A DNA stretch of 64,000 nucleotides from an uncultured Syntrophobacteraceae bacterium. GTDB taxonomy: Bacteria > Desulfobacterota > Binatia > UBA9968. The stretch covers positions 16,772-80,771 of the forward strand of contig CAYOJC010000007.1 of assembly GCA_964404195.1 (NCBI GenBank). Reading direction: 5' to 3'. Both the position numbers and the translations under genes were made by a program. The notes under the pieces were generated by a model. It was not told the DNA's origin and searched no databases. It saw only the letters and a program-made list of their open reading frames with translations. The stretch's first letter is position 1, and each line of letters starts with the position of its first letter. Shown here piece by piece: positions 7,300 to 26,568 of this stretch.

Positions 7300-7373
7300 C
7301 GGCCTGGAATCGATTCCCGTTTTCCGATATAGGATAAAAAATAATTCTAGCGTTGCGAAAGGAGGAAGTTGGA

Positions 7374-11179: not shown

Positions 11180-12613
11180 TCAGCGCGGCTTTCGCAGAAT
11201 GGGGCCCCATTTTTCGCGCACCTGCCGCTCGTATTCCGGCGTGAAGGTCATATGCTTGCCGAACTGCTCGATCCAGTCCCAGGGTTTGCAGGCGTCGATC
11301 AGCACCCGGCCGCAGGTCAGGTCCCACGATTCCCGCTTCTTCGGACTCATGATCGGATCGACGCGCGTGCTCACCGTGCCGCGCACGATGTCGATCTGCT
11401 CTTCGGGCAGGCAGCGCGTGGTCATGGCCCAGAGCACGTCGTTGAGATTCGACGGATCGATGTCTTCGTCAACCACGACGTAATACCGGTAGGCGCTGTT
11501 AGAGCCGCGGACGCCGACCGCCGTGAGCAGCGCCATCTTCGCATGGCCGGCAAAGGCCTGCTTGAGCGAGATGACGATGAAAAGCCCGTTGGCGTGCGCC
11601 CACACGCCGCGGATGCCGGGCAGCGCGCTTTTCTCCAGCGCGTCCCAGACCGCGATCGCGGCGTGCGTGATCGTGCCGACGCTGATATTGCGGTTGTTCT
11701 GATGCGGGCCGGTAAGGATCGGGTCGTTACGGTGATAGATCGCCTTGATCTTGATGACCGGCTGGGGATGCGGTTCCTGGCTGTAGTAGCCCGGCCATTC
11801 GCGGTACGGCCCTTCGGTGCGCGCGTCCTCTTCAGGCGGCGGCACTTCGCCTTCTATTGCAATTTCCGCCGCCGCCGGGATCGGGAGCCCGGTCATCTCG
11901 CCTTTGATGATATCGATCGGATGGCCCGCCATTCCTCCGGCGACCTCCAGCTCCGATTTTCCCCAGGGCGAGCTTCCCGTCGAGGCTTGAAACAATTCAA
12001 CCTGCTGGCCGTAGCAGGCGACCACGGGACACGCCTTGCCCTTGGCCCAATATTTTTTCGCGATGATCATCCCGTGATGATGGGGCTCGACGAAAAATCC
12101 CACGGTCTTCTCGTCGTGGATCATCTGCCGGTAAGTCCCCATGTTGACCCAGCCCTCGTCCGGGTCGCGGTTGATGACGAGCGTCGTCGTGCCGATGTAG
12201 CGGCCGCCTTCCAGCATGCGCCACTTGGGCGTGGGGAATTTTAAAATATTGACTTTGTCGCCGCGGTCCTGGTTCTCCAGGATCGGCCCCGAGGCGACTT
12301 CGCGCGGCGGAATGAGAACGGTTTCTTTTCGCTTTTCCTTCATCGCGCGCGCGATCTCCAGGTCGCTCAGGTCCATCGGAATGCCGAGCGCCAGCGCCTG
12401 CTTCTTAGGGTTGTTCTGAAGATTGGTAAGCGCGCGAAAGCCCGCCGGATATCCCGGGATCTTGTCGAAGATCAGCACCGGGTTGTCTTCGGTTTCCTGC
12501 ATCATCTGCGAGATTGCGCCGATCTCCAGGTCCCAATGCGCGCCCTCGACGACGCGCAGCATGCCGAGCTTGTCGAGCGCGTCGAGATAGTCTCTCAAAT
12601 CGCTGTATCCCAT
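11180..12613 (-). CDS. UbiD-family (prFMN-dependent) decarboxylase, paralog 1
   Basis: 477 aa. The N-terminus MGYSDLRDYLDALDKLGMLRVVEGAHWDLEIGAI is typical of UbiD/Fdc-like enzymes, and family-like similarity runs the full length. Confidence 0.9.
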   Translation of the reverse strand: MGYSDLRDYLDALDKLGMLRVVEGAHWDLEIGAISQMMQETEDNPVLIFDKIPGYPAGFRALTNLQNNPKKQALALGIPMDLSDLEIARAMKEKRKETVLIPPREVASGPILENQDRGDKVNILKFPTPKWRMLEGGRYIGTTTLVINRDPDEGWVNMGTYRQMIHDEKTVGFFVEPHHHGMIIAKKYWAKGKACPVVACYGQQVELFQASTGSSPWGKSELEVAGGMAGHPIDIIKGEMTGLPIPAAAEIAIEGEVPPPEEDARTEGPYREWPGYYSQEPHPQPVIKIKAIYHRNDPILTGPHQNNRNISVGTITHAAIAVWDALEKSALPGIRGVWAHANGLFIVISLKQAFAGHAKMALLTAVGVRGSNSAYRYYVVVDEDIDPSNLNDVLWAMTTRCLPEEQIDIVRGTVSTRVDPIMSPKKRESWDLTCGRVLIDACKPWDWIEQFGKHMTFTPEYERQVREKWGPILRKPR

Positions 12614-12628
12614 ACGGTCCTTTCTTAC

Positions 12629-12651
12629 AGGGCGTGATTAATCACGCCCCT
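12629..12651. repeat. REP-like palindrome GGGCGTGAT-TA-ATCACGCCC
   Basis: It has the same core as 8142-8169 and lies between the SBP and UbiD genes. Confidence 0.65.
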
Positions 12652-12664
12652 ACAAACATCTTGT

Positions 12665-13645
12665 TTAGGGTTTCCAGCCGCTTGCCTTCAGCTCGTCGTT
12701 CGCCTTGCGCACAAAGCTCAAGTCGAAGATGTCGCCGGTTTTAATGTCGCGCTGAACCTTCGTAGTTCTTTTCATATCGTCGACGATCGTTTGAAGAATC
12801 TTATCATCGCTGAAACCCTGCCGTAGAATCAGCTTGGATTCGATGTCATAGATCGCAATCGCCATCTCGCGGTCCGTCAACCTCAAAGCGTCCATCATAT
12901 ACTTGATCGCCGGCTCCCGTTTGCTGATGAAGAAATTTATTCCCTTGAGGCTCGCGCGGATGAATTTGAAAAGCTTCCCAGGGTTTTGTTTGATCTTTTC
13001 GTCCGACGTTGCCAATCCGCCTTGGACAAGATTGGCGAAATCACCGGCCGATGCCAGCTTGGTGAAGCCTTCCTTTTGCGCCTTGATGCTCGTCCCGGTG
13101 TTGAAGAGCGTTGCCTGAATCGCCTTGGCCTTCATCGCCGGAAAGCGCACTTCGTCTCCTCCCATCACGACGAGATTCAGATCTTTGACCGGATCCAACC
13201 CGTTTTGCTTCAAGATCTCCCTGGCAACGACGGCGAGCGAGCCTTCCGGAGACATGATTGCCACGTTGGTCCCGCGAAGTTGGGCCATCGATTTGATATT
13301 GGGCTGGGCGATGAGGTCCCATGAGGGCTTGTCTTGAAAGACCGCGAGGATTTTGACGGGAACTCCCCGGACCGCCGCCGCAAGGGCGCTGCCGGCATTG
13401 GTGAAGAAGTCGATCTCTCCCGCCAGCGCGATCCTGATGGCGATCTCGCCGCGGATGCTGAGCAACTCCACGTTGAGTCCTTCTTCACGCATATAGCCTT
13501 CCTTCTGCGCGATGATGAGGCAGTACGTCGAAGAATTCATCGAAGGATAGGCGACGCGGACATTTTCCGCCGCCGGGGCGGAGGAATGATTTAGCAGCAG
13601 GCAGAAGTAAATGAGAACGGCGAAGGGCAGGCGTTTGATGGGCAC
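12665..13645 (-). CDS. ABC transporter substrate-binding protein (NMT1/THI5-like, NitT/TauT family)
   Basis: 326 aa with a signal peptide. It resembles aliphatic sulfonate/nitrate/bicarbonate-type SBPs and matches the permease/ATPase type at 18073-19919. Confidence 0.8.
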   Translation of the reverse strand: MPIKRLPFAVLIYFCLLLNHSSAPAAENVRVAYPSMNSSTYCLIIAQKEGYMREEGLNVELLSIRGEIAIRIALAGEIDFFTNAGSALAAAVRGVPVKILAVFQDKPSWDLIAQPNIKSMAQLRGTNVAIMSPEGSLAVVAREILKQNGLDPVKDLNLVVMGGDEVRFPAMKAKAIQATLFNTGTSIKAQKEGFTKLASAGDFANLVQGGLATSDEKIKQNPGKLFKFIRASLKGINFFISKREPAIKYMMDALRLTDREMAIAIYDIESKLILRQGFSDDKILQTIVDDMKRTTKVQRDIKTGDIFDLSFVRKANDELKASGWKP

Positions 13646-13654
13646 TGAATTTCT

Positions 13655-13699
13655 CCCTCACCCCTTCCCTCTCCCGCTGGGAGAGGGCGAGGGTGAGGG
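13655..13699. repeat. G/C-rich palindromic REP-like element (second copy)
   Basis: ccctcaccccttccctctcccgctgggagagggcgagggtgaggg is self-complementary and belongs to the same family as 184-272. Confidence 0.7.
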
Positions 13700-13704
13700 T
13701 AAAG

Positions 13705-14925
13705 CTAGTCGATGACGCCTTCTTTTACCAGAGCTTCGTAATCCGAGCGGGACAATCCGAGCAAGTCGCAGTAGAAATATTCGTTGTGCTCGCCGAGCAG
13801 CGGATCGCGCTTGGTGGGGCCGGGCGGCGTTTTGCCGAGGAGAAACGGCGGCCGTTGGTAATGCATCTTGCCGATCTCGGGATGCTCCAGCTCGACCCAT
13901 TGCGGCCGCTGCTTAAGTTGAGGATCTTCGTAAACGTCGCACATCCGGTTGACGACTCCGGCTTTGACTCCGGCCTTCTGAAGTTTTTCCATTACATCGC
14001 GCGCCGTCAAGCTGCGAGTCCACTCGCCGATTTTAACGTCGAGCTCGTCTTCATTGGTCTTGCGGGCTGCGTGCGAAGAGAATTTTTTATTCGCGCTCCA
14101 AGCCGGATTTCCCATCACGCGGTACAGCGCCTTCCACTCCGCCTCTGTACTCACGCTGATAACGCACCACAGGTCGTCGCCTTTGCACGGGTAAGCGCCG
14201 TGCGGCGCGGCGTCGGGGTCGCGATTGGCGTTGCGCCCGGCGACCCTGCCATTCACTTTGTAATCCAAAAGAATCGGCGCCAGGTACTGGAGGCCGGTCT
14301 CGTATTGCGCCGTGTCGATATAATTGCCCTTGCCGGTGCGCCGCTTATAATCTAGCGCCGCAAGAATTGCGACGGCGCCGTACGCGACCGCGATGTAGTC
14401 GATGTAGGGGCCGTAGAGAATTTGTGGCGGGCCGTCCGGATAGCCCGTGAGATGCGTGAATCCCGCCAGCGACGAGAGCTGCGAGCCGAACCCGGCGTGA
14501 TGCGCGTGCGGTCCGCTCTGCCCGAGGTTCGAGCTCGAGAGCATGATGAGATCGGGCTTAACTTTCTTCAAATCCTCGTAGCCGAGTCCAAGACGCCCCA
14601 TCGTGCCGGGACTGAAATTTTCGATCACGACGTCCGCCCAGGCGACGATATTTTTCGCCAGCTCGGTGGCCTTCGGCGTTTTCTTGAGATTGATCGTGAT
14701 GTCGAGCTTGTCGTTGTTGCACAGGGCGAAAAGCCCCGAGCGATTGAGGCCGTGAATGTTGTCTTTGTACGGCGGATAGTGCGCGCGGAACCCGTCCGGC
14801 CGCACCTTCGATTCTATGTGAACGACCGTCGCGCCGTGATCGGCCAGATGCTTGCCGACTACCGGCCCGGCGGCGAACGCGGCGAACTCGACGATCTTAA
14901 CGCCCTTCAAAGACTGCACGTTCAA
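13705..14925 (-). CDS. Family III CoA-transferase (CaiB/BaiF type), subunit B candidate
   Basis: 406 aa. The N-terminus LKGVKIVEFAAFAAGPVVGKHLADHGATVVHIE is typical of class III CoA-transferases. It overlaps the upstream paralog by 4 nt. Confidence 0.9.
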   Translation of the reverse strand: MNVQSLKGVKIVEFAAFAAGPVVGKHLADHGATVVHIESKVRPDGFRAHYPPYKDNIHGLNRSGLFALCNNDKLDITINLKKTPKATELAKNIVAWADVVIENFSPGTMGRLGLGYEDLKKVKPDLIMLSSSNLGQSGPHAHHAGFGSQLSSLAGFTHLTGYPDGPPQILYGPYIDYIAVAYGAVAILAALDYKRRTGKGNYIDTAQYETGLQYLAPILLDYKVNGRVAGRNANRDPDAAPHGAYPCKGDDLWCVISVSTEAEWKALYRVMGNPAWSANKKFSSHAARKTNEDELDVKIGEWTRSLTARDVMEKLQKAGVKAGVVNRMCDVYEDPQLKQRPQWVELEHPEIGKMHYQRPPFLLGKTPPGPTKRDPLLGEHNEYFYCDLLGLSRSDYEALVKEGVID

Positions 14926-16187
14926 ATCACTCCTTTACGCTTGTGCTCTTCCAGCTCATCGCGCGTCATCCCCAACTCTCCACAATATACTTCTTCATTA
15001 TGCTCTCCGATCCGCGGAGCGCGCCGCCAGATCCGGCAGGCGCCCTCGCTGAACTTGGCAAAGCCGCCGGGGTAGGTAATCGAACAACCGAGCTCCGGAT
15101 GATCGACCTCCTGCCAGAAATCCCGCGCGGCGTGCTGCGGATCTTCGAATATTTCCTTCACGCTCGCGACCGGGTAACCCAGCATTTCCCGCTTGACTAC
15201 TTCTTTAAAAAATTCCGCCTTCGTCACGCCTGTGAAAAAACGGGCGATCGGCTCTTCCATCCGGTCGATCTCTTCCTGCGTCACCTTGGCGATGTCGAAG
15301 GTCTGCCAATCTTTCTGCTTCAAAAAATCCGGCGCCATTCCCTTGCTGTCCATCCACTCGACCAGGGCTTGATTGGTTCTGCGTCCCGCCTCGCCGCCGT
15401 AGATGATGAAATTCAGATAGCCGTCTTTGCAGGGCCAGAAGACGCGCATCTTCGCGCCGGTGATGCTCCGTCCGGTCATGAACGAGCCGGCGCGTTTTTC
15501 CAGATGGCGATTCAGATCCCAGAACGTGTGCGCGTGGGAGAACGCCCACAGGAGGCAGGCCTGTGCGGATACGTCCACGTGCTGGCCTTCGCCCGACTCT
15601 TGCCGGTGGTAGTGGGCGACCAGAGCGCCCATGGCCGCGTACGATCCGGTCCACGAGTACGACTGCGGAAACGTGACGCGAAGCGGCGGACGGTCGGGAT
15701 CGCCGGTGAGGGACATGCAGCCGGAGAGCGCCATGATCTCGATATCCGACGCGTGGAACTTGCTGTAGGGTCCGGTCTGGCCGAAAGGCGTAATCGAGGT
15801 GAAGACGAGTTTTGGATTCAGCCGGTTCAGCGCCGAGTAGCCGATTTTGAGTTTGTTGAGATACCCCGGCGTGAAGCTTTCGATGACGAAATCGGCCTTG
15901 GCCGCAAGCTGAGAGAAGATTTTGCGCCCTCTCGGCAATTCGAGATTGAGCGTGATGCCGCGCTTGTTGTTGTTGAAGCCGAACCAGTAGAGGCTTTTCT
16001 CCGGATCGCGCTCGTCTTTGAAGAACGGGCCGAGCCTGCGGGCGGGATCGCCGCCCGGCCGCTCGATCTTGATCACGTCCGCGCCCAGATCGCCCAGGAC
16101 TTTGCCGCAGAGAAATCCCAGCTCGTCGGTCAAATCCAGGACGCGGTACGGAGCGAGCAAACCTTGGTTTCTATTTCCGGCAAGCAT
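14922..16187 (-). CDS. Family III CoA-transferase (CaiB/BaiF type), subunit A candidate
   Basis: YRVLDLTDELGFLCGKVLGDLGADVIKIERPGGDP is the canonical N-terminus. The start is taken at the ATG at 16187 because the ORF's first 17 codons run through a terminator hairpin. Confidence 0.9.
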   Translation of the reverse strand: MLAGNRNQGLLAPYRVLDLTDELGFLCGKVLGDLGADVIKIERPGGDPARRLGPFFKDERDPEKSLYWFGFNNNKRGITLNLELPRGRKIFSQLAAKADFVIESFTPGYLNKLKIGYSALNRLNPKLVFTSITPFGQTGPYSKFHASDIEIMALSGCMSLTGDPDRPPLRVTFPQSYSWTGSYAAMGALVAHYHRQESGEGQHVDVSAQACLLWAFSHAHTFWDLNRHLEKRAGSFMTGRSITGAKMRVFWPCKDGYLNFIIYGGEAGRRTNQALVEWMDSKGMAPDFLKQKDWQTFDIAKVTQEEIDRMEEPIARFFTGVTKAEFFKEVVKREMLGYPVASVKEIFEDPQHAARDFWQEVDHPELGCSITYPGGFAKFSEGACRIWRRAPRIGEHNEEVYCGELGMTRDELEEHKRKGVI

Positions 16188-16196
16188 GATGAATTT

Positions 16197-16236
16197 AAAA
16201 AAAAGGGCAGGGGATTCAGACCCCTGCCCTTTTTTC
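16197..16236 (-). terminator. Rho-independent (bidirectional) terminator between UbiD paralog 2 and the CoA-transferase genes
   Basis: AAAAAAAA-GGGCAGGGG-attcaga-CCCCTGCCC-TTTTTT: a perfect 9-bp GC stem flanked by A and T runs. Confidence 0.75.
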
Positions 16237-16302
16237 ACCTACAGTGGGCTCGCGCTCATTCCTTCTGCTCCTTACGAACACGAATCACGAGCACGAACAC
16301 GA

Positions 16303-17883
16303 TTACCTTCCCGTGCGCGCCAGGGAATGAACCCAGCCGACCATGCGTGATTTAGCGTTCTGAATATCTTTGTCACTAAAAAATTTCTTGAGATCGACTT
16401 TGCCGACCGGGTAGACCGGGCGCATGAAGTCGCTCTCGTAGCCGAACGGCACGGTCGCGTCGATGCCCATGCCGCCTTCGAAGCTGGTGTTGGATGCCGT
16501 CCATTCTTTCTCGCCGGCGGTCATGCGCTCGGCCGGCATAAAGGTCTGGCCGCGTCCGCCCGGCAGCGGATTGATGATGTCGGTCTTGGGATTCACGCGC
16601 GTCGTGAGACACCACATGACGTCGTCCATGTCGTACGGATCGGTGTCTTCGCTGACGGCGATGACGAGGCGCGAGCCCTGTGACGTGGCGAGGATCGCGG
16701 CCATGAAGTTGCGCTGCCAGCCTTCTTCGATCTTGTTGCGCTTCTTGACCTGGATAATCGCTCCACCCCAATCGGTCATGCAATAAGGAATGTTCACGTC
16801 CATGACGATGCCGGGCTGCATGCGCTCGCACAGCTCGAACATAGCCGCCTCGCGCACGGTCGTATCGATGTTATGGTCGTCGAGGGTATGGACGCCGAGC
16901 GGAAAAATAATCGGCTTGGACTCGCGCTTGCGTGTGGTCACGGCGGTGACGTGGAACGTCGGCGCTTTGTACGCCTTGCCCATGTAGCCGGCCCATTCCG
17001 GATGGAAATGAAAGCGGCCCTGAATCCCGGCCTTCTCCGACTCCGCCGTTTCGAAGCGGCGGTCGCGCGGATTGACATAGCCTTCGAGCACGACTTCCGC
17101 ATCGGCGACCGCCAGTGCATCGACGGTGCGTGCTTTCACCAGCCGCACGGGAGCGCCTTGGATGGCGCCCGCGCTGCCGACTTCATCGCAGCCTTGCGGA
17201 AGAATGACGTAGTCGAAACCGGCGCCCGCCATCAACGTGCAGGACGGCGGCAAGCCGAAGTTCATCGTGATCGGCACCAGCTTTTTCTCTTTGTAATACT
17301 TGGTGACGACCTGCCACATGTGCGAGCCGGGGGAGATCTGAAACGTACCGACGTTGCCCCAGCGGAAGTTCATCCGGTTGTAGCCGAGGTCGGTGCCGCC
17401 GTCGAAGTACTCGCCCGAGATCAGCCGGTTGCCCGAACCGACGGTCAATTCGGGCTCGAGGTCGGTGTGCCGGATCGGCACGACGAATTCAGCGGCGTCG
17501 ATCGGCTTCTCGTAAACTTCTTCCTGCACCGGCGCGTCTTTTTGGTCGATGATGACGGGCTTCAAAGGATGGGTCAGCGCATAGGCCAACTTTCTCGTGC
17601 GGTCGGCATGGTCTTTCCAGCCGAACATTTTACCGATGACGTTCATGTCGCCGAAAAGGTTCGTGACGCAGCGATGCTTCGGCTTGCCTTTGATGTTGTT
17701 GAAAAGGATCGGGCAACCGCCGTCCAGTTGTTTCTGGATGCCGGTGATCTCCAGGTTGGGATCGACCTCTTTATCCGTGACGATAAGATCGCCTTCCTGC
17801 TTGAGCCATTCGAGGGTACTGCGCAGGTCTCGGATAGCCTCGGACCGCGGGGCCCCAGAGACTTTCTCCATGGGCTTGCTCAT
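16303..17883 (-). CDS. UbiD-family (prFMN-dependent) decarboxylase, paralog 2
   Basis: 526 aa with UbiD-like organisation (LRSTLEWLKQEGDLIVTDKEVDPNLEITGIQK...). It diverges from paralogs 1 and 3. Confidence 0.88.
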   Translation of the reverse strand: MSKPMEKVSGAPRSEAIRDLRSTLEWLKQEGDLIVTDKEVDPNLEITGIQKQLDGGCPILFNNIKGKPKHRCVTNLFGDMNVIGKMFGWKDHADRTRKLAYALTHPLKPVIIDQKDAPVQEEVYEKPIDAAEFVVPIRHTDLEPELTVGSGNRLISGEYFDGGTDLGYNRMNFRWGNVGTFQISPGSHMWQVVTKYYKEKKLVPITMNFGLPPSCTLMAGAGFDYVILPQGCDEVGSAGAIQGAPVRLVKARTVDALAVADAEVVLEGYVNPRDRRFETAESEKAGIQGRFHFHPEWAGYMGKAYKAPTFHVTAVTTRKRESKPIIFPLGVHTLDDHNIDTTVREAAMFELCERMQPGIVMDVNIPYCMTDWGGAIIQVKKRNKIEEGWQRNFMAAILATSQGSRLVIAVSEDTDPYDMDDVMWCLTTRVNPKTDIINPLPGGRGQTFMPAERMTAGEKEWTASNTSFEGGMGIDATVPFGYESDFMRPVYPVGKVDLKKFFSDKDIQNAKSRMVGWVHSLARTGR

Positions 17884-18072
17884 TTCGTTCCTCCGGTAAT
17901 TGGGGTTTCTTGCGCGGCTTCAAGACCGCGATCGCGGCCCGGCCGTTCTTAAGGATTAGGTCTATGCTTCTTTCCCGAATCGTGTGATCAGCGCGATCAG
18001 GAAGTGTCTTTCATCAATTAACAGAGAATTTTCTTTATCCTATGCGACCCAAAAAGTCAACCTATAGACGGA

Positions 18073-19011
18073 GTGAATCCTCTTACGTTGACAGGGTTTC
18101 AGGGGCGTCATACGATGCTTCGAGCCATGGGAGAAAACAATTCGATGTCGTCGATCGATGACGCGCGCGTGGACGATGCTGCGGCGCTGGACGGCGCCGC
18201 AAGCGCTTCAATGGTCGGCTCCGCGCGCAAGCCAAAGGCTCACGTCACTCTGTATAACAATTTTCTCCGGATCGCCTCGATCCTCACGTTGCTGTTTATC
18301 TGGTGGCTGCTCAGCCTGATTTTTCCGCCGACGTTGGTGCCGAAGCCGTGGGACACGTTTGCCGAGGTGGGCGCGATCGTCAACTCGGGAGATCTTTTCG
18401 TCGAGATGAGCAACACGCTGCGCCGCGTCCTGATCGGATTCGCCCTGGCGATGATCGTCAGCACTCCGCTCGGGATTTTCATGGGGACGCTCCGCAGCCT
18501 GGAAAGTTTTTTCGAGCCGCCGGTGATTTTGGGCCTCACGATGCCGGGCCTCATCTGGGCCGTGCTCGCGATCATGTTTTTCGGTTTGACGGAGATAAGC
18601 GCGTACGCGGCGGTCGCGATTACGATTCTGCCCATGCTCACGATCAGCATCTGGCAGGGAAGCAAATCGATCGACAAAGATTTGATCGACATGAGCACGG
18701 TCTTCCACGCCGGCCCGTGGTCGAAGGTCGTGGACGTTATATTGCCTCAGCTCGTCTCGCACATCCTGGCGGCGATCCGCTACGGCCTCGGGCTCGCCTG
18801 GAAAGTGGTCGTCGTCGTCGAGATGTTCGGCTTCAGCAACGGCGTCGGCTATCGAGTGGTCCGCGGCTTCAACACCTTTTCGATGAAGGCCGTGCTCGCC
18901 TGGACGATTACGTTTCTCGTCGTCATGGTCGTGATCGAGTTCGGCATGATCGGCTGGCTCGAGAAGAGCGTCACGCGCTGGCGCCCGCGCGTCGAGGCGT
19001 GGAGGCGGTAG
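18073..19011 (+). CDS. ABC transporter permease (NitT/TauT family)
   Basis: Multi-TM protein with a binding-protein-dependent transport signature region (...STVFHAGPWSKVVDVILPQL...). The start is uncertain (GTG 18073 or ATG 18115). Confidence 0.85.
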   Translation: MNPLTLTGFQGRHTMLRAMGENNSMSSIDDARVDDAAALDGAASASMVGSARKPKAHVTLYNNFLRIASILTLLFIWWLLSLIFPPTLVPKPWDTFAEVGAIVNSGDLFVEMSNTLRRVLIGFALAMIVSTPLGIFMGTLRSLESFFEPPVILGLTMPGLIWAVLAIMFFGLTEISAYAAVAITILPMLTISIWQGSKSIDKDLIDMSTVFHAGPWSKVVDVILPQLVSHILAAIRYGLGLAWKVVVVVEMFGFSNGVGYRVVRGFNTFSMKAVLAWTITFLVVMVVIEFGMIGWLEKSVTRWRPRVEAWRR

Positions 19012-19022
19012 TGGCGCTCGTC

Positions 19023-19116
19023 GCAGTTCAAAATGAAAATTGCAAAGTTTAAAAGGCAAATTTTGGCCCGCGCCCCTCTTCCATTTTGCATTTTGCATTT
19101 TGCATTTTGCATTGGG
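19023..19116. repeat. GCAAAAT-heptamer hairpin element (copy 1, reverse orientation)
   Basis: ATTTTGC x4 in perfect tandem at 19083-19110 faces a degenerate complementary arm at 19023-19066. Its reverse complement is homologous to 54320-54418. Confidence 0.8.
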
Positions 19117-19142
19117 TGGGAGCCTGAAGGCGGGAGGAGATA

Positions 19143-19919
19143 GTGGCCTACGTCAGCGTTAATCGCGCGGTGAAGTATTTTTCGCGCGAAGACGGCTCGG
19201 AGATGCTGGTGCTGAACGGCGTCTCGTTCGAAGCCAGAGAGCACGGCATTACCGCGCTGCTGGGGCCGTCGGGCTGCGGCAAGTCCACGCTGCTCAACGC
19301 CATCGCCGGGCTGGAGAAATTGGATGGCGGCGAAATCGAGTTTCGAAAGGCGCACGAGGGCTCGAAGGCGCGCGACCCGAGACTGGGTTATGTCTTCCAA
19401 GACCCGCGGCTCCTCAACTGGAAGCGCGTGGAGGGGAATCTTACCTTCGCGCTGAAAGGCATGAAGATTCCTCGCAACGAGTGGGAGCGGCGTCTGGTTA
19501 AATATCTCGACCTGGTCGGCCTCGGCGAATTTCGCCGGCAGTACCCGCTCTATCTTTCCGGCGGCATGCGCCAACGCGTCGACCTCACGCGGGCTCTCGC
19601 CGTCGAGCCGGAACTGCTCTTAATGGACGAGCCTTTCAGCAAGCTCGACCAGTTGACCTCCCGCAAGCTGCGCCAGGACGCGGTCGCGATCTGCGCGCGC
19701 CTCGAGCAGACCGCGATTCTCGTCACGCACGACGTGGAGGAGGCGGCTTATATGGGCGACCGGATCGTGATCTTCTCCGCCCGCCCCGCGCGTATCGTCG
19801 AGGTCGTGGACAATCCGCTGGCGCTCGCCGAGCGCGACTTCGACGATCTGAAGTTCATTCAATTCAAGAACAAGCTGTTGAATACCGTGCTGAAACTCGT
19901 GGATCAGGAGGGAACATGA
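19143..19919 (+). CDS. ABC transporter ATP-binding protein (NitT/TauT family)
   Basis: Walker A GPSGCGKST, signature LSGGMRQR, Walker B LLLMDEPFS. GTG start. Confidence 0.92.
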   Translation: MAYVSVNRAVKYFSREDGSEMLVLNGVSFEAREHGITALLGPSGCGKSTLLNAIAGLEKLDGGEIEFRKAHEGSKARDPRLGYVFQDPRLLNWKRVEGNLTFALKGMKIPRNEWERRLVKYLDLVGLGEFRRQYPLYLSGGMRQRVDLTRALAVEPELLLMDEPFSKLDQLTSRKLRQDAVAICARLEQTAILVTHDVEEAAYMGDRIVIFSARPARIVEVVDNPLALAERDFDDLKFIQFKNKLLNTVLKLVDQEGT

Positions 19920-20935
19920 AGAAGGCATTAGGCAACAGGCAACAGGCAATAGCAAAAACAATCTGTGCGGTCGCTTGCGTTGTCGTCGCGATGATTGCGC
20001 TGGTGACAGGCAAACAAATCAATGCCGCGGAGTTGCCGACGATCGAGGTCGGGTTGCCGGACGACGGGCTGTTCGGTTTGGGCGGCCAATATATTTTGGA
20101 CAAAGGACTCGACAAAAAGAATGGCTTCGTGATGAAGCCGCGCTGGGCCGGCGTGCCGGAGATTCAGCGGCTGCTCGGCATCAAAGCGATTTCCGTCGGG
20201 CTGATGACGCCGGAAGCCGGTCTCCGCGCGAACGTCGCCGGTGTTCCGATACGCCTCCTGCAGCCGTACCAGACGAGCCATATGTATGTCCTGGTGCGAA
20301 AGGATTCTCCGTATAACTCGGTGGAAGATCTCAAAGGCAAACCGGTTGCGCTCACTTCGGAAGTCACGACGCTCTACAACCTTTTCGACTTCATGATGCG
20401 GAAGCGCGGCATGAACGTCGAAAAAGATTTTCAACTCAAGAAACTCGCCGCTCCGGTGATCATCGCGGTTTTGGAAAAAGGCGATGTGGAAGCCGGCCTT
20501 CTCTGGGAAGCGCACATCTCGCGTCTGCTCACGAGTGGAAAATACAAAACGATCCTGGGCTTTCGCGACGAGCTGTCGCGCCTGCTCAACGTCAAGGTCA
20601 TGCCGGTGGTCTGGCTCGCCGGTCTCGAACCATGGGTGAAAGAAAACGCGGCGCTCGTCCCCAAGCTGCGCGCCGCGTGGACCGAAGCGTATCGCGGGCT
20701 GCAGAACGACGAAGCGCATTTCAAAAAATACGCCAAGCAGTTCTTCGGACTGGAGAAACCCGAGGAGCTGGCCGCCGCCTGGCCGCGCACCAAAATATTT
20801 TTGCTTCCATCTGATTTTACCTGGCCCGAGGCGGCCACGCTGAAAGCGCAAAAGAGCTGGCTCCGAGAAGGCGTCGAGATGGGAATGTTTCCCAAAGAGG
20901 CAGAGAGTTTGATCGACGGGATGTACGCGCCGTAG
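19916..20935 (+). CDS. ABC transporter substrate-binding protein (NMT1-like)
   Basis: Signal peptide. ATGA start/stop overlap with the ATPase gene. NMT1/SsuA-like length and composition. Codons 4-13 are encoded by a GGCAACA heptamer tract. Confidence 0.8.
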   Translation: MKKALGNRQQAIAKTICAVACVVVAMIALVTGKQINAAELPTIEVGLPDDGLFGLGGQYILDKGLDKKNGFVMKPRWAGVPEIQRLLGIKAISVGLMTPEAGLRANVAGVPIRLLQPYQTSHMYVLVRKDSPYNSVEDLKGKPVALTSEVTTLYNLFDFMMRKRGMNVEKDFQLKKLAAPVIIAVLEKGDVEAGLLWEAHISRLLTSGKYKTILGFRDELSRLLNVKVMPVVWLAGLEPWVKENAALVPKLRAAWTEAYRGLQNDEAHFKKYAKQFFGLEKPEELAAAWPRTKIFLLPSDFTWPEAATLKAQKSWLREGVEMGMFPKEAESLIDGMYAP

Positions 20936-20992: not shown

Positions 20993-21616
20993 ATGAACTG
21001 CTCATCCAGTCGCAATCTCTTGCTCCTTATTTTCTGCTGCACTTTTCTCTCATGTATAGGGTGTGGAGCCTTGACGGAGATCAGCATCACGGACACGCAG
21101 TTCAAGAGTTCGATTATCGCAACGAACGACGAGGAAGATTTCAGAGGATTTTTCTTCGACTCTTCGGACGTGCTGATACCGCGTGATTACCTGGCCGATA
21201 CGTGGGAGAATCACGTCGGCAGCTCGATTCGAATCGTGGAAGGAAAGCATCGGGTCCTCTTCATAGATCTGTTCAAAAATCCGGTGCCGGGCATGATCGA
21301 CGAGGAGTTCGGCTATAAGCTGTTAATTCAATTCTCTCCCGACTCGGACAAAGACGCGATTTATTTTTCGGACTCATCGGATAGCAGCACGGCGATTGCC
21401 CATTACTTCCACTTCGGCCCGGGTTCCGTTCACTGCTGGTGGACCCAGCCGGTGGGTAAAATCGATTTGCGGAGGACCTCTTCAGATACGCTCGATGGGG
21501 AATTGAACCTGACTTTCCTTGCTGAATCTTCCACGAAACTGTGCCAGGGCCGTTCCGTCTCATTTCGCGGCAAGTTCTCTGTGCCAAAGCGAAGCGATAG
21601 GAAGCTCTTCCGGTGA
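20993..21616 (+). CDS. Hypothetical lipoprotein
   Basis: The N-terminus LLLLIFCCTFLSCIGCG is lipobox-like. It lies in a low-G+C region and I recognise no family. Confidence 0.55.
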   Translation: MNCSSSRNLLLLIFCCTFLSCIGCGALTEISITDTQFKSSIIATNDEEDFRGFFFDSSDVLIPRDYLADTWENHVGSSIRIVEGKHRVLFIDLFKNPVPGMIDEEFGYKLLIQFSPDSDKDAIYFSDSSDSSTAIAHYFHFGPGSVHCWWTQPVGKIDLRRTSSDTLDGELNLTFLAESSTKLCQGRSVSFRGKFSVPKRSDRKLFR

Positions 21617-21694
21617 GCAAATGTTGAACCTACCATCTGTCCCGACGGCTGCTACGATGAAAGTACAGAAGTTTTTGAGCAATAAAATTAACGG

Positions 21695-22123
21695 ATGAAC
21701 GATCGAGTGATAGAGCCGGACGGGAGCCAGGACTTTGGGCCGTGCGAGTGCTGCGGCGACAACAGCCGCACCGTCTGGGGATTGGTTCACCGAGATAACT
21801 GCACGGAGGCTGCTTACTTCGTACACTGGTCGCTCGGCAAGGTCGCCGACAAGGGCGCGTATATCGACCTCATCCTTGGGCCCTGGGGTGAGGGAACCGA
21901 CCGAGCCGATCGGTACGCAGTCTCGCTGGAATTTCGCCAGGGATTCGGAGTCAAAATTATTGATGCCAGCGTACGAAATATTGCGCGTCATAGCATGGTG
22001 GGGCGAGGGCTGGTGCGAGAGGACGTCGTTATGACGCCACTGGCTCAGGAAGTCTTTGAGATCCTGGATTTCATCTGGGTACAGGATGGGCGCATCGCAG
22101 AAGTGACGGGAGAAGTCCCTTAA
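21695..22123 (+). CDS. Hypothetical protein with N-terminal CxCC motif
   Basis: 142-aa ORF (GPCECCGDNSRTVWG...). The antisense ORF 21560..22237 was judged less protein-like. Confidence 0.5.
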   Translation: MNDRVIEPDGSQDFGPCECCGDNSRTVWGLVHRDNCTEAAYFVHWSLGKVADKGAYIDLILGPWGEGTDRADRYAVSLEFRQGFGVKIIDASVRNIARHSMVGRGLVREDVVMTPLAQEVFEILDFIWVQDGRIAEVTGEVP

Positions 22124-22191
22124 CTTTGTGAGCATATTATCAAGATTCAAGACTTGATTCTGAAAGACTTGTGGGCTAACCGAGTCGAAAC

Positions 22192-23217
22192 ATGCGATAC
22201 GACGAAAACGATATTGATTTCTCAACGCTTGATCCATCGGTCTTCGAAGAACTGTGCTTTGATCTTTTAATCCGTTTGGGGTTTCAAGAACTCCAGTGGC
22301 GCCGGGCAGGTGCGGACAGTGGTCGCGACATTGAAGGCAAATGGCTGGTTCAGTTGCCTATTATCGGTGCCTCTCAAGAGACTTGGGCTATCGAGTGTAA
22401 GCACTATTCTCGTGGCGTTCCGCCCGATGCTTTGTCATCAAAGTTTTCCTGGGCCGACGCAGAAAGACCAGATCGTCTGCTGATATTTGTGAGCTCGCAT
22501 TTGACGAACGGTGCAAGAGACTGGCTCTCGAAACGTAAGAAGCAGGTGTCTTACCGGGTGCACGTTGTCGAAGGCAAGACGCTCCGCCAGCAACTGATCG
22601 CTTACGATGAGTTGGTTGAGCGCTACTTTGGCGGCCGATACGCCCGTCTATTAAGTCAGGCATTTGAGTCGTGGGCTCTTCATGGACTCATTCCATCCCT
22701 CGAGACACTTGGCATCTTGCTAAACCACATAGACCCAACGAAGCTAACGATCGACGAGGTCGCATTCCTATGGTGTGTTCGGCTCTTCAGGAAGGACGAA
22801 ATCCATAGTTGGGAGGAGGGCGAAGAAAAGACTTTTCCGGGAAGCGTTCTTTTAGATCAGTTAAGTGCAAGTACGAACATGTGCGCGAGCGTAATCGATC
22901 CATACCACAGCGTGATCTTTCATGGGACTTCAATATCGAGCACGGGGCGTCTCACCGAGGATGAGAGCAAGCAGGACCATTCCTATTTCGCGGAGATCCT
23001 GGTAGACCGCGGCCAAGGCCCACGGATTGCACTGTACGCTTATCATGCCTCCGGCACTGGGAGTGGCTGCGAAGTTCTTGTAGTCGCTGGTGCACGTCCA
23101 GAGGCATCAGTACGTTATCTGCAAACCAACGCCTACGTAGCATTCAGGCAGACTGAAGCGCTTATGTTGGAGCGGTATTCTGCAAGATCTCGACGAACTG
23201 ATGTCCGAGAAACGTAA
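22192..23217 (+). CDS. Mrr-like PD-(D/E)xK restriction-endonuclease-domain protein with an unknown C-terminal half
   Basis: FEELCFDLLIRLGF...GADSGRDIEG...WAIECKHY matches Mrr_cat-type D...ExK architecture. I do not recognise the ~190 C-terminal residues. Confidence 0.65.
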   Translation: MRYDENDIDFSTLDPSVFEELCFDLLIRLGFQELQWRRAGADSGRDIEGKWLVQLPIIGASQETWAIECKHYSRGVPPDALSSKFSWADAERPDRLLIFVSSHLTNGARDWLSKRKKQVSYRVHVVEGKTLRQQLIAYDELVERYFGGRYARLLSQAFESWALHGLIPSLETLGILLNHIDPTKLTIDEVAFLWCVRLFRKDEIHSWEEGEEKTFPGSVLLDQLSASTNMCASVIDPYHSVIFHGTSISSTGRLTEDESKQDHSYFAEILVDRGQGPRIALYAYHASGTGSGCEVLVVAGARPEASVRYLQTNAYVAFRQTEALMLERYSARSRRTDVRET

Positions 23218-23310
23218 ATGGGGACAGAGAACATGAAGGAGGACTTTACTGATCATTTGCGCTTCAGCCTGTCACCATAAGCGTCCTTGTCTGAGTCTGA
23301 GTGTCGGAGC

Positions 23311-23502
23311 CTATTTTGGCAGAAAATCTTCCAACCTAACCGTCTCCCAACCCATCGGCTTCAATCTTTCGAACGGCATGCGCGCTTCTTTGCCGGCGCA
23401 CAGCGGCGGCGTGGTCGCGTCGATAATCACCTTGCCGCCGACGCGGTGCCAGTACTGTCCGCCGGGAGGGATGGGCTCGTCGCCGGTCGGGTCTATCGGA
23501 TG
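23311..23502 (-). pseudogene. Displaced 3' fragment (63 codons plus TAG) of the UbiD paralog 3 gene, copy C
   Basis: My translation gives HPIDPTGDEPIPPGGQYWHRVGGKVIIDATTPPLCAGKEARMPFERLKPMGWETVRLEDFLPK*. The intact gene ends ...HPMDPTGDEPIPPGGQYWHRVGGKVIIDATKPPLCAGKEARLPFERLKPMGWETVRLEDFLPK*. Confidence 0.85.
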
Positions 23503-23575
23503 GGCCGAAGAAAATGTACCGGGAGTCTTTTCTGCTCCCGCTTATCCCGCGCGCCATTAGACGCCTTAACTCACT

Positions 23576-23589
23576 TCATGTATACATGA
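23576..23589. promoter_or_regulatory. Perfect 14-bp palindrome, candidate TA operator
   Basis: TCATGTATACATGA lies 4 nt upstream of the GTG start of the DUF4258 gene. Confidence 0.4.
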
Positions 23590-23592
23590 GTT

Positions 23593-23934
23593 GTGGCCGA
23601 GCGTAAGCTCCCGGACGATCCTACATCATTCATCCGTGACTGCCTTCACGGTGGCCGGATTTTGTGGACGTACCATGTCAACATGCGCTTGGGACGGAGG
23701 TTCATCGCCCGCGAGACGATTATCTTGGCCGCCGACAGCTACGAAATTGTCGAGGCCTACCCGGAGGACAAATACTTTCCGAGTTATCTGCTCCTTGGCC
23801 GACAGGGCGAGGAGACGTTTCATGTGCTGTTTGGAGCCGATGTAGATGGTCAGAACGTTCGACTTGTCACGGCATATTATCCCAGCCCCGAGGAGTGGGA
23901 AATCGATTTGAAAACACGAAGGAGGTCCTCATGA
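23593..23934 (+). CDS. DUF4258-domain toxin-like protein
   Basis: ILWTYHVNMRLGRRFIARETI...IVEAYPEDKYFPSYLLLG....ETFHVLF......VRLVTAYYP matches the DUF4258 pattern as I recall it. Confidence 0.75.
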   Translation: MAERKLPDDPTSFIRDCLHGGRILWTYHVNMRLGRRFIARETIILAADSYEIVEAYPEDKYFPSYLLLGRQGEETFHVLFGADVDGQNVRLVTAYYPSPEEWEIDLKTRRRSS

Positions 23935-24152
23935 AGTGCACGGTTTGTGGCGCCGGTATGAATCGGATCAAGACCGACCTGCCGTTTAAGTTGTCGGAAG
24001 ACCGCATTGTCATCTTCAAGCAACTGCCGGTCTTGCAGTGTAAAGCGTGCCGCGAATATCTGATTGAGGATGCTGTTATGGCGCGCATCGACACTTTGCT
24101 TAGGCAGGCAGACAGTACGGCTGAACTCGAAGTGATCCGCTACGCCGCGTGA
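23931..24152 (+). CDS. YgiT-type zinc-finger (MqsA-family) antitoxin-like protein
   Basis: MKCTVCG...VLQCKACREYLI gives two CxxC pairs. ATGA overlap with the DUF4258 gene. Confidence 0.75.
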   Translation: MKCTVCGAGMNRIKTDLPFKLSEDRIVIFKQLPVLQCKACREYLIEDAVMARIDTLLRQADSTAELEVIRYAA

Positions 24153-24158
24153 GAGCCC

Positions 24159-24313
24159 TCACTTCGGCAAAAAATCTTCCAACCTCACCGTCTCCCACCC
24201 CATCGGCTTTAATCGCTCGAACGGCAGACGCGCTTCTTTGCCGGCGCAGAGAGGCGGCTTGGTCGCATCGATGATTACTTTGCCGCCGACGCGATGCCAG
24301 TACGGTCCGCCGG
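24159..24313 (-). pseudogene. Displaced 3' fragment (about 50 codons plus TGA) of the UbiD paralog 3 gene, copy B
   Basis: It encodes ...GGPYWHRVGGKVIIDATKPPLCAGKEARLPFERLKPMGWETVRLEDFLPK*, identical to the intact gene end except for one residue at the junction. ORF 24159..24485 is a chimera of this fragment with unrelated sequence. Confidence 0.85.
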
Positions 24314-24357
24314 AGCTTTTTCTTGCTAAATGGGGTTTTGCCAGGCACAATCGCGGC

Positions 24358-24549
24358 ATGACAAAAATGTCGCGAGTTCCGTCCAGGAAGGCTGAGTCAC
24401 GTTTCTCGGATGGACTTAGACCCGAGTACAAGAGGTCGGACTTCGGTGAGATAGTTCGCGGACAATACGCGCGACGCGTAAGCAAAGCGACAAACGTTAT
24501 CGTCCTTGATCCGAAAATGGCAAAGGCGTTTCCGAACGAGGGAAGATGA
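24358..24549 (+). CDS. Small antitoxin-like ORF (uncertain)
   Basis: 63 aa. EYKRSDFGEIVRGQYARRV...NVIVLDPKMAKAFPNE resembles a motif I associate with small TA antitoxins. It appears C-terminally short. Confidence 0.35.
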   Translation: MTKMSRVPSRKAESRFSDGLRPEYKRSDFGEIVRGQYARRVSKATNVIVLDPKMAKAFPNEGR

Positions 24550-24654
24550 TAAGGGAACAGTCCCTTTTTCAGCCTTCTACAGTCTGGTCAGGCGTGCGAT
24601 GAGCACCGAGGTCTGCTATACTTACGAGTAGCTCTGGAGCATCGGAGGTGTGAA

Positions 24655-24876
24655 ATGAGCAAGATCATAGAAGCAGTTTTCGACGGAAAGGTACTTCGTC
24701 CCAAAGACGCACTCACGCTTGAGCCGAATACTCGCGTGCGGATTACAATCGAACCCGTAGAGCCAATTGCCAAAGGGGACGTTTCATTTCTGGATACCGC
24801 CCTATCACTGAAGTTGGATGGCCCGCACGATTGGGCGGTGAAAATTGGGCGCTCATGTGACTGTCCACGACTATGA
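24655..24876 (+). CDS. DUF104 (AF2212-like) antitoxin-family protein
   Basis: MSKIIEAVFDGKVLRPKDALTLEPNTRVRITIEP is the typical DUF104 N-terminal beta-domain. Confidence 0.6.
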   Translation: MSKIIEAVFDGKVLRPKDALTLEPNTRVRITIEPVEPIAKGDVSFLDTALSLKLDGPHDWAVKIGRSCDCPRL

Positions 24877-24921
24877 TCCCGAAATATATGAACCGGATCA
24901 CAGGACAAGGAGAAAAACAAA

Positions 24922-25152
24922 ATGAAATGCGTGTTTTGTAAGCAGGGCAAGACCCACCCTCAGAAAGTGACGGTCGAGCGTCACAACCAGGCTGGTGAGC
25001 CGATTGCGGTCATCCATAACTTTCCTGCCGAGGTTTGCGAGGTCTGTGGGGAAGAATACTATTCAGCGAAGGACTGGCAGAAAGCCGAGCGCTTGCTTGC
25101 CAAGTCTCCTATCAAGGTGACTAGAGTGCCGGTCTATGAGCTGCATCCGTAA
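24922..25152 (+). CDS. YgiT-type zinc-finger protein (MqsA-like, no HTH)
   Basis: MKCVFCKQG...AEVCEVCGEEYY gives two CxxC pairs. 76 aa. Confidence 0.7.
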   Translation: MKCVFCKQGKTHPQKVTVERHNQAGEPIAVIHNFPAEVCEVCGEEYYSAKDWQKAERLLAKSPIKVTRVPVYELHP

Positions 25153-25179
25153 GAAAACGGTCTAGCGCTACCCTCACCC

Positions 25180-26568
25180 TCACTTCGGCAAAAAATCTTC
25201 CAACCTGACCGTCTCCCAACCCATCGGCTTTAACCTTTCAAACGGTAGCCGCGCTTCTTTGCCGGCGCAGAGGGGCGGCTTGGTCGCGTCGATGATGACC
25301 TTGCCGCCGACGCGATGCCAGTACTGTCCGCCGGGGGGAATGGGCTCGTCGCCGGTCGGGTCCATCGGGTGAATGCGCGTGCCGGGGATGATGACCATGT
25401 CTTCCTGCGGGTTGCAGCGCGTGTTGATCGCCCACAAAACTTCCCAGTAATTAAAAATATTCACGTCCTCGTCGACCGCAATCGCGATCTTCGGATGGAG
25501 AATCGGGCTCGACAGCACGCCCATCAAAACTTGCTTGGCCTCGCCGTAAAAGCGCGGCGTCATCTGCACGACGATGCCGAAGAGTCCGGGCAGAACCAAC
25601 AGGTTGTGCAGGTTGACGTAGCCGCCGATGTGTCGGATGTGGTTGTAGACCGCGACGCCGAACGGTACTTTGTGAAAGATGCAGCCTTCGACCTCCGAGC
25701 CGTTCTGAATCGCCTTGAAGATGGCGTCGTGGCGCATGGTGATGCAGTCGATCTCGATCACCGGATTTTTTCCCATGCCCGCGACGTAGTAGTCGTGGAA
25801 CTCGGAGAACGGCCCTTCCTCCTCGCGCACATTCGGCAGTATTCTTCCCTCCAAAACGATCTCCGCGTCGTACGGAACTTCCAGATCGTTGGTCTCGCAC
25901 TTGACGACTTTCGCCGGCTCGCCGATGAGCCCGCCGGCCAGCTCCAGCTCGTCCATCTCGAACGGCCCCGTGGTGGCGGCGGCCATGTAATATAAAGGAT
26001 GGTGGCCGATGAAGATCGCCACCGGCGTCGGCTCGTTCCGCTCCTCGTGCTTCGTGAGAATGGCCCGCGTGTGGCGCGGGACGATGAGCGCGCCGGTCTT
26101 GCGCGGTCCTTTGATTTGCAAGCGATGAAAAGCGACGTTGCGCACACCCGTGTCCGGGTCGCGCGCCACCAGCAGGCCCGACGCTATATAAGGAGTCTCC
26201 TCGCTGCCCGCGACATGCGCGGGAAGCTTAGTGAGATCGACCTGATCGCCCTTCAAAATAATTTCCTTTACCGGTCCGGTCGAGACTAGTTCCGTCGGTT
26301 GCCGCTTGAGCGCGCGCTCCGCTGCGGTGGGAATTAGCTTCTCGACCGTCGTGCCGTAGGCCAGCGCGGCGTGGCGCAGGTTCGCGGGCGCCATGCCGAG
26401 GCTTTTCCACTTCGGGAATCCCGCCACGTTTTCGAACAACAGCGCTTTCTCCCTCGACTGGTAGAGCAGCGCGCCCATCTGCGTGTGCGGATGAACGGGC
26501 TTGGTGATGTGAATCAGCTCTCCCGCAGTCTCAAGTTCTTGAATCCACGTGCGCATGTCCTTGGGCAT
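25180..26568 (-). CDS. UbiD-family (prFMN-dependent) decarboxylase, paralog 3 (intact)
   Basis: 462 aa. The N-terminus MPKDMRTWIQELETAGELIHITKPVHPHTQMGAL is typical of UbiD. Its last ~63 codons recur at 24159-24313 and 23311-23502. Confidence 0.9.
   Translation of the reverse strand: MPKDMRTWIQELETAGELIHITKPVHPHTQMGALLYQSREKALLFENVAGFPKWKSLGMAPANLRHAALAYGTTVEKLIPTAAERALKRQPTELVSTGPVKEIILKGDQVDLTKLPAHVAGSEETPYIASGLLVARDPDTGVRNVAFHRLQIKGPRKTGALIVPRHTRAILTKHEERNEPTPVAIFIGHHPLYYMAAATTGPFEMDELELAGGLIGEPAKVVKCETNDLEVPYDAEIVLEGRILPNVREEEGPFSEFHDYYVAGMGKNPVIEIDCITMRHDAIFKAIQNGSEVEGCIFHKVPFGVAVYNHIRHIGGYVNLHNLLVLPGLFGIVVQMTPRFYGEAKQVLMGVLSSPILHPKIAIAVDEDVNIFNYWEVLWAINTRCNPQEDMVIIPGTRIHPMDPTGDEPIPPGGQYWHRVGGKVIIDATKPPLCAGKEARLPFERLKPMGWETVRLEDFLPK

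Follow-up and report, generated by a model that had tools for sequence, protein, structure and literature searches.

A probable o-phthalate 'activate, then decarboxylate' module in uncultivated Binatia, built on a phthaloyl-CoA decarboxylase ortholog

Which compound would a bacterium load with coenzyme A (CoA) by means of a paired CoA-transferase and then decarboxylate with a UbiD-family enzyme, when as many as three UbiD genes lie together within 15 kb? The question is raised by contig CAYOJC010000007.1 (GenBank assembly GCA_964404195.1) of an uncultured bacterium placed in the Binatia, of which a 64-kb stretch, hereafter the window, was analysed; the assembly consists of 194 contigs, is 99.4% complete and represents a genome of ~5 Mb. 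Oxygen-independent phthalate breakdown by way of phthaloyl-CoA has been described in a few cultured organisms, denitrifiers and sulfate reducers, and has been discussed as a recent assembly answering a man-made chemical. A sequence-only reading of the window had proposed this transferase-plus-UbiD logic for the cluster, and the proposal is supported here by a full-length match of one of the decarboxylases to solved phthaloyl-CoA decarboxylase (PCD) and by a one-to-one correspondence of the transferases with the pair of Aromatoleum aromaticum EbN1. We put at roughly 0.75 the probability that the region has an o-phthalate 'activate, then decarboxylate' module at its core.

The two-step logic of anaerobic o-phthalate degradation has been reviewed (PMC13040137): a CoA-transferase acts first and phthaloyl-CoA decarboxylase follows, the intermediate is described as 'extremely unstable' and is captured through high levels of the decarboxylase, and the characterised transferases are highly specific for o-phthalate. 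Genes in the window were called from an open reading frame (ORF) listing together with Pfam and NCBIfam profile scans, which gave Pfam E-values of 1e-17 to 1e-102 across the cluster, and the gene set and order named by the sequence-only reading were recovered in full and in place. The core comprises the following elements:

16303..17883, minus strand: phthaloyl-CoA decarboxylase ortholog (UbiD paralog 2; PCD/PhtDa type, UbiD family, 526 amino acids), from the PDB match and identity to EbN1.
14922..16187, minus strand: CoA-transferase subunit A (family III, BbsE-like, predicted catalytic, 421 amino acids), PF02515 CoA_transf_3 at 3e-82 and EbN1 match.
13705..14925, minus strand: CoA-transferase subunit B (family III, BbsF-like), PF02515 CoA_transf_3 at 1.4e-102 and EbN1 match.
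18032..18060, minus strand: putative decarboxylase promoter, sigma-70-type, TTGACT-17 nt-TAAAGA, with TTGACTTT and ATAAAGAAA blocks conserved in 12 loci.
16198..16236, minus strand: intrinsic terminator of the decarboxylase gene, a 9-bp GGGCAGGGG stem extended by A/U pairs, with a T8 tail.

Judged from its sequence, the product of UbiD paralog 2 is a phthaloyl-CoA decarboxylase ortholog. When compared with all PDB sequences, its residues 10–526 align with residues 11–527 of the entries named 'phthaloyl-CoA decarboxylase' (8PMK/8OZ5, and 8P02) at 881 bits and with zero gaps, the next PDB family, protocatechuate decarboxylase AroY, reaching just 152 bits. The N-terminal (PF20695), Rift-related (PF01977) and C-terminal (PF20696) UbiD domains all score above cut-off, the catalytic-loop stretch RFHFHPEWAGYMGKAYKAPTFHVTA is that of 8PMK with no substitutions, and this protein and the EbN1 enzyme have a PCD-type catalytic-loop insertion in common. 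It is 69–70% identical to both plasmid copies in EbN1, and a tblastn search over plasmids returned a single record, EbN1 plasmid 2 (NC_006824.1); among the UbiDs encoded alongside it in the genome it stands apart, with at most 28% identity to any of the 50 other UbiD paralogs. Loss of the conserved UbiD residues had been named in advance as a sign against the proposal. What was found is that paralog 2 and its two neighbours in the window, UbiD1 and UbiD3, all keep the Arg, His and Glu family positions when aligned with the EbN1 enzyme, in columns that probably correspond to the residues of the prenylated flavin mononucleotide (prFMN) and metal site in Fdc1. Where the sequence-only reading gave no substrate, the PCD-level match of paralog 2 puts o-phthalate in its place as the most probable one.

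The transferases tell a similar story. Subunit A is 50% identical to EbN1 RS22145 and subunit B 49% to RS22140, with cross-comparisons at 25–28%, and in the alignments one family column holds Asp in subunit A and RS22145 and Gly in subunit B and RS22140. The same column is also Asp in the three other family III paralogs of the genome and in the aligned PDB enzymes; on these alignments, the Asp/Gly split is a derived feature common to the window pair and the pair of a cultured phthalate degrader. This Asp is presumably catalytic, as in Frc and CaiB, and because it occurs in subunit A only, with Gly in B, the two proteins are expected to act as a heteromer with one catalytic subunit. A heteromer had already been suggested from a 4-nt overlap of the two genes, and the suggestion gains from the Asp/Gly split and the one-to-one subunit matches. 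The overlap itself stands if subunit B starts at TTG 14925, but gives way to a 2-nt gap if it starts at the in-frame GTG 14919, an AAGGAG motif being equally well placed upstream of both; subunit B is translationally coupled to subunit A. The ORF of subunit A opens at GTG 16238 (14922–16238), but translation most likely starts at ATG 16187, since a start at the GTG would translate the terminator hairpin. Grouping with CaiB or Frc, likewise named beforehand as an adverse outcome, was not what the comparisons gave: the transferases match the EbN1 pair subunit by subunit, and their nearest solved structure is BbsEF. Identity of 49–50% is a level that suggests, and does not in itself fix, specificity for succinyl-CoA and o-phthalate.

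The control elements around the decarboxylase gene are conserved too. A leader of ~140 nt runs from the promoter-like site to a GGAGGA motif and the ATG, and an alignment of 12 related loci shows TTGACTTT, ATAAAGAAA and GGAGGA kept across genera, which points to the TTGACT-17-TAAAGA element as the probable promoter. At the other end, between the decarboxylase stop at 16303 and the subunit A ATG at 16187, lies a hairpin that folds at -27.6 kcal/mol (z = -4.6; 0/200 shuffled sequences as stable) with a T8 run behind it. A GGGCAGGG stem, with loops that vary, follows the decarboxylase gene in 21/24 related loci that have the transferases downstream, and a terminator sits at this point too in the majority of the loci with a solitary decarboxylase gene. 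The sequence-only reading had described a strong terminator separating paralog 2 from the transferases; the terminator is real and conserved, but rather than dividing two equal units it is the decarboxylase's own. From the T-run to the transferase ATG there are just 6–14 nt, which leave no room for a promoter, and the transferases are therefore most likely expressed by read-through, which would place them below the level of the decarboxylase. A 6-codon mini-ORF ahead of the terminator was considered as an attenuator leader and ruled out, its spacing not being conserved in relatives.

How widely this arrangement is shared was assessed in 61 sampled genomes of the order, together with sampled genomes from other orders of the class, and in 80 related Binatia loci (967 kb in total), to which all counts out of 80 refer. 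An ortholog of the decarboxylase, at 80–99% identity, is present in 58/61 genomes of the order and in none of those sampled from the other orders. In the family labelled f1 it is flanked by a constant MFS–TPR gene and an SLT/JAB/hydrolase block. The transferase pair occurs in 47/61 genomes, directly downstream of the decarboxylase in f1, divergent from it in f2 and 25–36 kb away in f3, and among the 80 loci it lies directly behind the decarboxylase in 23–28, from several genera. The decarboxylase is thus a fixed-position gene with its own promoter and terminator, and the transferases and importer come and go. Metagenomes contain 1106 clusters, at 90% identity, of decarboxylase homologs (E <= 1e-100), including metagenome-assembled genomes labelled Alphaproteobacteria and Vicinamibacteria. 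A tree of the top 120 matches to the Binatia query, rooted with a paralog of 50% identity, has the EbN1 enzyme nested within an environmental radiation, with the window's clade near the root; because this sampling is biased and the outgroup branch is long, no direction of transfer is claimed.

Some features of the surroundings may be recorded beside these counts. The conserved left neighbour of the locus (26708–29890) is a 1060-residue fusion of an MFS transporter, a spermidine-synthase-like part and TPR repeats, and a JAB/MPN-domain protein with an alpha/beta hydrolase (8835–10201) and a dienelactone hydrolase (7353–8111) adjoin the locus in f1 and f2. The alpha/beta hydrolase (8835–9725) and the dienelactone hydrolase were considered as phthalate-ester hydrolases and gave generic hydrolase matches only, and nothing was found that ties this block functionally to the decarboxylase. 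Some relatives (G183:C212, G166:C82, G022:C231 and G188:C180; loci L114–L116) hold a second adjacent pair, with a decarboxylase ~50% and a transferase ~60% identical to those of the window, and this pair may have a sister function with another aroyl-CoA as its substrate.

An importer is encoded on the opposite strand, its promoter-like site lying back-to-back with that of the decarboxylase:

18088..18116, plus strand: importer promoter-like site, TTGACA-17 nt-TACGAT, from a consensus scan (10/12 positions match).
18145..19011 (ORF opens at 18073), plus strand: ABC permease, NitT/TauT type, Pfam BPD_transp_1.
19143..19919, plus strand: ABC ATPase, Pfam ABC_tran at 2.8e-30.
19916..20935, plus strand: substrate-binding protein SBP2, candidate phthalate binder, Pfam Phosphonate-bd/NMT1.

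Only the closest relatives keep the TGTCAA block of the importer site. For the permease, the probable start is ATG 18145, which is preceded by GGAG and lies downstream of the promoter-like site, and relatives align only from residues 53–85 on. SBP2 is single-copy, with one tblastn match in the genome, and permease, ATPase and SBP2 stand beside the decarboxylase in 10–11/80 loci. This divergent importer is likely to be the phthalate uptake system, its ligand being suggested by the company it keeps.

The remaining genes of the wider cluster appear to belong elsewhere:

12665..13645, minus strand: SBP1, NMT1/SsuA-type binding protein, Pfam NMT1 at 2e-22.
11180..12613, minus strand: UbiD1, PhdA-like, predicted free-acid decarboxylase, best PDB match 7PDA (E 1e-128).
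25180..26568, minus strand: UbiD3, HmfF-like, a separate unit convergent with the importer, PDB 6H6X/6H6V (E 3e-69 and 7e-68).
20993..25179, no strand assigned: islet of lower GC content with a 207-residue hypothetical protein, an Mrr-like nuclease and small cassettes, from third-position GC content (GC3) and Pfam Mrr_cat.

The genome encodes 51 UbiD genes and, by tblastn, about 113 SBP1-like genes (contigs C43, C1 and C46 are among their sites), and an SBP1-like binding protein lies within 3 kb of 18/51 UbiDs. UbiD1 is 42–46% identical to several UbiD paralogs of its own genome, and because such uptake-plus-decarboxylation modules recur genome-wide, UbiD1 and SBP1 read as one more copy. UbiD1 is present in 7/80 loci, SBP1 in 6/80 and UbiD3 in 2/80, and both UbiD1/SBP1 and UbiD3 are probably modules separate from the phthalate core. 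The earlier picture of a three-decarboxylase cluster accordingly keeps its three members but not their unity, given that UbiD1/SBP1 occur in 6–7/80 loci and belong to a genome-wide expansion. The further idea that the third UbiD would abut the cluster if the islet were removed is borne out by a relative (locus L090), in which 306 bp separate the end of the UbiD3 ortholog from the decarboxylase gene downstream of it. The islet itself is outside the pathway; its GC3 is 0.54–0.65 against 0.72–0.82 for the cluster, whose genes match the composition of their neighbours, and it is shorter or absent in relatives. It also holds extra copies of the last ~50 codons of UbiD3; relatives have shorter versions (L021 4070–4219; L037 2571–2723).

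Put together, these elements suggest the following working scheme. A heteromeric family III CoA-transferase would load o-phthalate with CoA taken from a donor that is probably succinyl-CoA, with subunit A bringing the catalytic Asp and subunit B, with its Gly, serving as a scaffold. The prFMN-dependent decarboxylase would at once remove the free ortho carboxyl to give benzoyl-CoA. Through its own promoter and strong terminator, much more decarboxylase than transferase would be made, the transferases arising by read-through, and such an excess would suit a very labile phthaloyl-CoA intermediate. Substrate would likely be taken up by the divergent ABC importer with SBP2, and prFMN would come from one unlinked ubiX sited in an assembly gap. 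UbiD1 with SBP1, and UbiD3, would be neighbouring but separable modules for aromatic-acid decarboxylation. Benzoyl-CoA would most likely be handed to a class I aryl-CoA reductase, for which four genes in bcrCBAD order at the end of contig C96 (14240–18443; L029) are the candidates: their top family matches are the four class I Bcr subunits, and the best PDB match is MbdN of 3-methylbenzoyl-CoA reductase at 304 bits. In one relative (G177), the counterparts of these four genes have BadH-like, hydratase and acyl-CoA dehydrogenase genes behind them. Contig C96 also carries a UbiD, a radical SAM gene and a molybdopterin oxidoreductase.

A number of observations weigh against this scheme. The substrate of the decarboxylase, most probably o-phthalate by way of phthaloyl-CoA, is read from about 70–75% sequence identity. 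In one sister genus that keeps the decarboxylase, 0/8 genomes have a transferase ortholog, which implies either that phthaloyl-CoA is made otherwise there or that the decarboxylase has another natural substrate. The cluster contains no regulator gene. No relation of the binding proteins to any plasmid-borne phthalate transporter could be detected: in tblastn searches of 72,556 plasmids SBP2 had no match, and SBP1 had 24–30% matches to generic binding proteins, none of them annotated for phthalate. Downstream, the C96 genes score 374 (BcrC), 298 (BcrB), 214 (BcrA) and 185 (BcrD) bits, all under the NCBIfam equivalog cut-offs of 421, 487, 578 and 313 bits; their GC3 is 0.75–0.85 as against 0.56–0.68 for their neighbours; and bcrCBAD-like genes occur in 19/28 f1 genomes and 0/27 f3 genomes, a patchiness that makes the class I reductase a candidate route rather than an established one. 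For Oah and Had nothing in the genome exceeds the cut-offs, the matches being generic crotonases and alcohol dehydrogenases. The best BoxB scores in the genome are 216–232 bits (model cut-off 499) and BoxC scores do not exceed 74 bits (cut-off 712), with the same outcome in five relatives. The aerobic hybrid Box route (BoxAB/BoxC) was for that reason rejected. Those BoxB scores, far above PaaA, come from two di-iron proteins of 382–384 residues (C25:5183–6337 and C8:37505–38653; L024 and L025), which are conserved in relatives.

The cofactor belongs with these difficulties too. No ubiX lies in the window by the Pfam Flavoprotein and NCBIfam ubiX models, which confirms the sequence-only reading, and none was found in the whole assembly by the same models or by tblastn with the UbiX of EbN1 and of a same-genus genome; nor is a ubiX linked to the decarboxylase, within 7 kb, in any of the 80 Binatia loci. 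All known phthalate clusters contain ubiX according to the review (PMC13040137). Lack of ubiX from a complete genome had been named as a refuting outcome. The assembly indeed has none, but ubiX is present in 18/20 related genomes searched, including 10/11 of the same genus, and the DNA flanking it in two same-genus genomes maps to bases 118–1200 of contig C57, which puts the gene ~450 bp past the end of that contig. Because the congeners have ubiX and its flank maps to the C57 end, the gene is best explained as missing through an assembly gap, and a true lack was rejected. A single unlinked ubiX would have to provide prFMN for all 51 UbiDs.

Three other explanations of the locus deserve to be weighed against the o-phthalate reading. 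The same chemistry might serve another natural substrate, such as a naturally occurring ortho-dicarboxylate with ring substituents or a heterocyclic ring, and here it is the age and spread of the gene that speak: a decarboxylase in 58/61 genomes, in fixed position and at 80–99% identity, is far older than industrial phthalates, its family fills 1106 metagenome clusters at 90% identity, and some genomes carry the second pair (decarboxylase ~50%, transferase ~60%). Phthalate, however, arises naturally too, and the window enzyme shares about 70–75% identity and the same catalytic-loop stretch with enzymes of measured phthaloyl-CoA activity. With characterised transferases reported to be highly o-phthalate-specific as well (PMC13040137), we regard a different substrate as unlikely.

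It is more doubtful still, and in our estimate decidedly improbable, that the whole 15 kb is one pathway in which UbiD1 and UbiD3 strip benzene polycarboxylic acids, brought in via SBP1 and SBP2, down to o-phthalate before CoA activation. The crowding of three UbiDs into 15 kb invites the idea, as do the position of UbiD1/SBP1 directly behind the transferases in the genus, the UbiD3 ortholog abutting the decarboxylase gene in L090, and the genomic background, which counts 51 UbiDs, 18 of them with such a binding protein within 3 kb, and about 113 SBP1-like proteins. The decarboxylase–transferase core nevertheless exists without them, UbiD1/SBP1 being present in 6–7/80 loci and UbiD3 in 2/80; UbiD3 forms a unit of its own, convergent and set off by a mobile islet, and UbiD1 and the UbiD next to the EbN1 cluster are not orthologs. 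That the decarboxylase has a housekeeping or biosynthetic function in these Binatia, its CoA-transferase neighbours in the genus being incidental, would fit a gene that behaves as part of the core, is single-copy and syntenic, has a promoter and terminator to itself and in many genomes stands alone among unrelated genes. The presence of the transferases directly behind it in 23–28/80 loci of several genera, as the counterpart of the EbN1 catabolic pair, and the fact that no biosynthetic neighbours were seen, make this explanation very improbable indeed. The o-phthalate module is thus the reading we prefer.

What is new is the lineage rather than the chemistry: a known enzyme pair is found in Binatia, an uncultivated lineage at phylum level, with an order-wide decarboxylase in a fixed position under its own promoter and terminator, and the literature searched gave no link of Binatia with phthalate, UbiD or benzoyl-CoA. 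Presence in 58/61 genomes and in more than 1000 metagenome clusters points to a far larger and older reservoir of the activity in soils and aquifers, and makes Binatia candidate organisms for the attenuation of plasticisers. The conserved terminator between decarboxylase and transferases would be a simple and testable means against build-up of a labile intermediate, and one unlinked ubiX for dozens of UbiDs would be a natural example of a shared prFMN supply. Tentatively, and with more doubt than conviction, it may be speculated that this soil and groundwater order has long possessed phthaloyl-CoA decarboxylation as a core trait handed down vertically, part of a lifestyle of importing and decarboxylating carboxyl-rich aromatic acids in which phthalate is the last dicarboxylate needing CoA activation, and that the plasmid-borne 'xenobiotic' pathway of the denitrifiers was recruited from that environmental pool and did not evolve recently.

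In comparison with known systems, the C96 genes share the C-B-A-D gene order of BcrCBAD of Thauera and MbdONQP (PDB 9G87), with top matches to all four Bcr subunits, but differ in their sub-cut-off scores, in being unlinked to the phthalate cluster and in not being found in f3, despite the decarboxylase and transferases there. UbiD1 has its best solved match in PhdA (phenazine-1-carboxylate decarboxylase, PDB 7PDA) and UbiD3 in HmfF (furan-2,5-dicarboxylate decarboxylase, PDB 6H6V), both showing the UbiD architecture over their whole length and retaining the family's Arg, His and Glu positions; unlike PhdA and HmfF, they are part of an expansion to 51 UbiDs, and the phthalate core does not need either of them. 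BbsEF, the benzylsuccinate CoA-transferase (PDB 9FN0), is the nearest solved structure to the transferases (A–A 256 bits, B–B 262 bits) and is likewise a heteromeric family III enzyme, but the similarity is below that to the EbN1 pair, and the partner in the window is a UbiD decarboxylase, whereas that of BbsEF is a set of toluene-pathway beta-oxidation genes.

The closest reference is the o-phthalate cluster of denitrifying Rhodocyclales, with phtSa/phtSb (succinyl-CoA:o-phthalate CoA-transferase), phtDa (decarboxylase) and phtDb (UbiX), as exemplified by EbN1 plasmid 2 (NC_006824.1) and by Thauera chlorobenzoica (PDB 8OZ5, 8P02, 8PMK). On the EbN1 plasmid the annotation reads UbiX, UbiD, CoA-transferase, CoA-transferase and TAXI-TRAP transporter. 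A second EbN1 copy of UbiX and decarboxylase (L006, record 74091–82367), which matches the first at 99.6% identity where the two align, adjoins an IclR regulator, an ABC importer and a PhdA-like UbiD (RS22170) and is without transferases. UbiD1 and the window importer were considered as orthologs of this second cluster and set aside, RS22170 having its best match on contig C37 (53%) as against 40% for UbiD1, and the ABC parts matching at 26–40%. The window cluster differs from EbN1 in having no linked ubiX and no IclR regulator, in an importer of ABC type where the transferase-bearing EbN1 cluster has a TAXI-TRAP transporter, in the strong conserved terminator between decarboxylase and transferases where EbN1 has a gap of 27 nt, and in being chromosomal, syntenic and order-wide where the EbN1 cluster is plasmid-borne beside insertion sequence (IS) elements. 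What the two have in common is the order of decarboxylase, subunit A and subunit B, the tight coupling and the Asp/Gly split between the subunits, together with an ABC importer, which in EbN1 lies beside one of the two decarboxylase copies.

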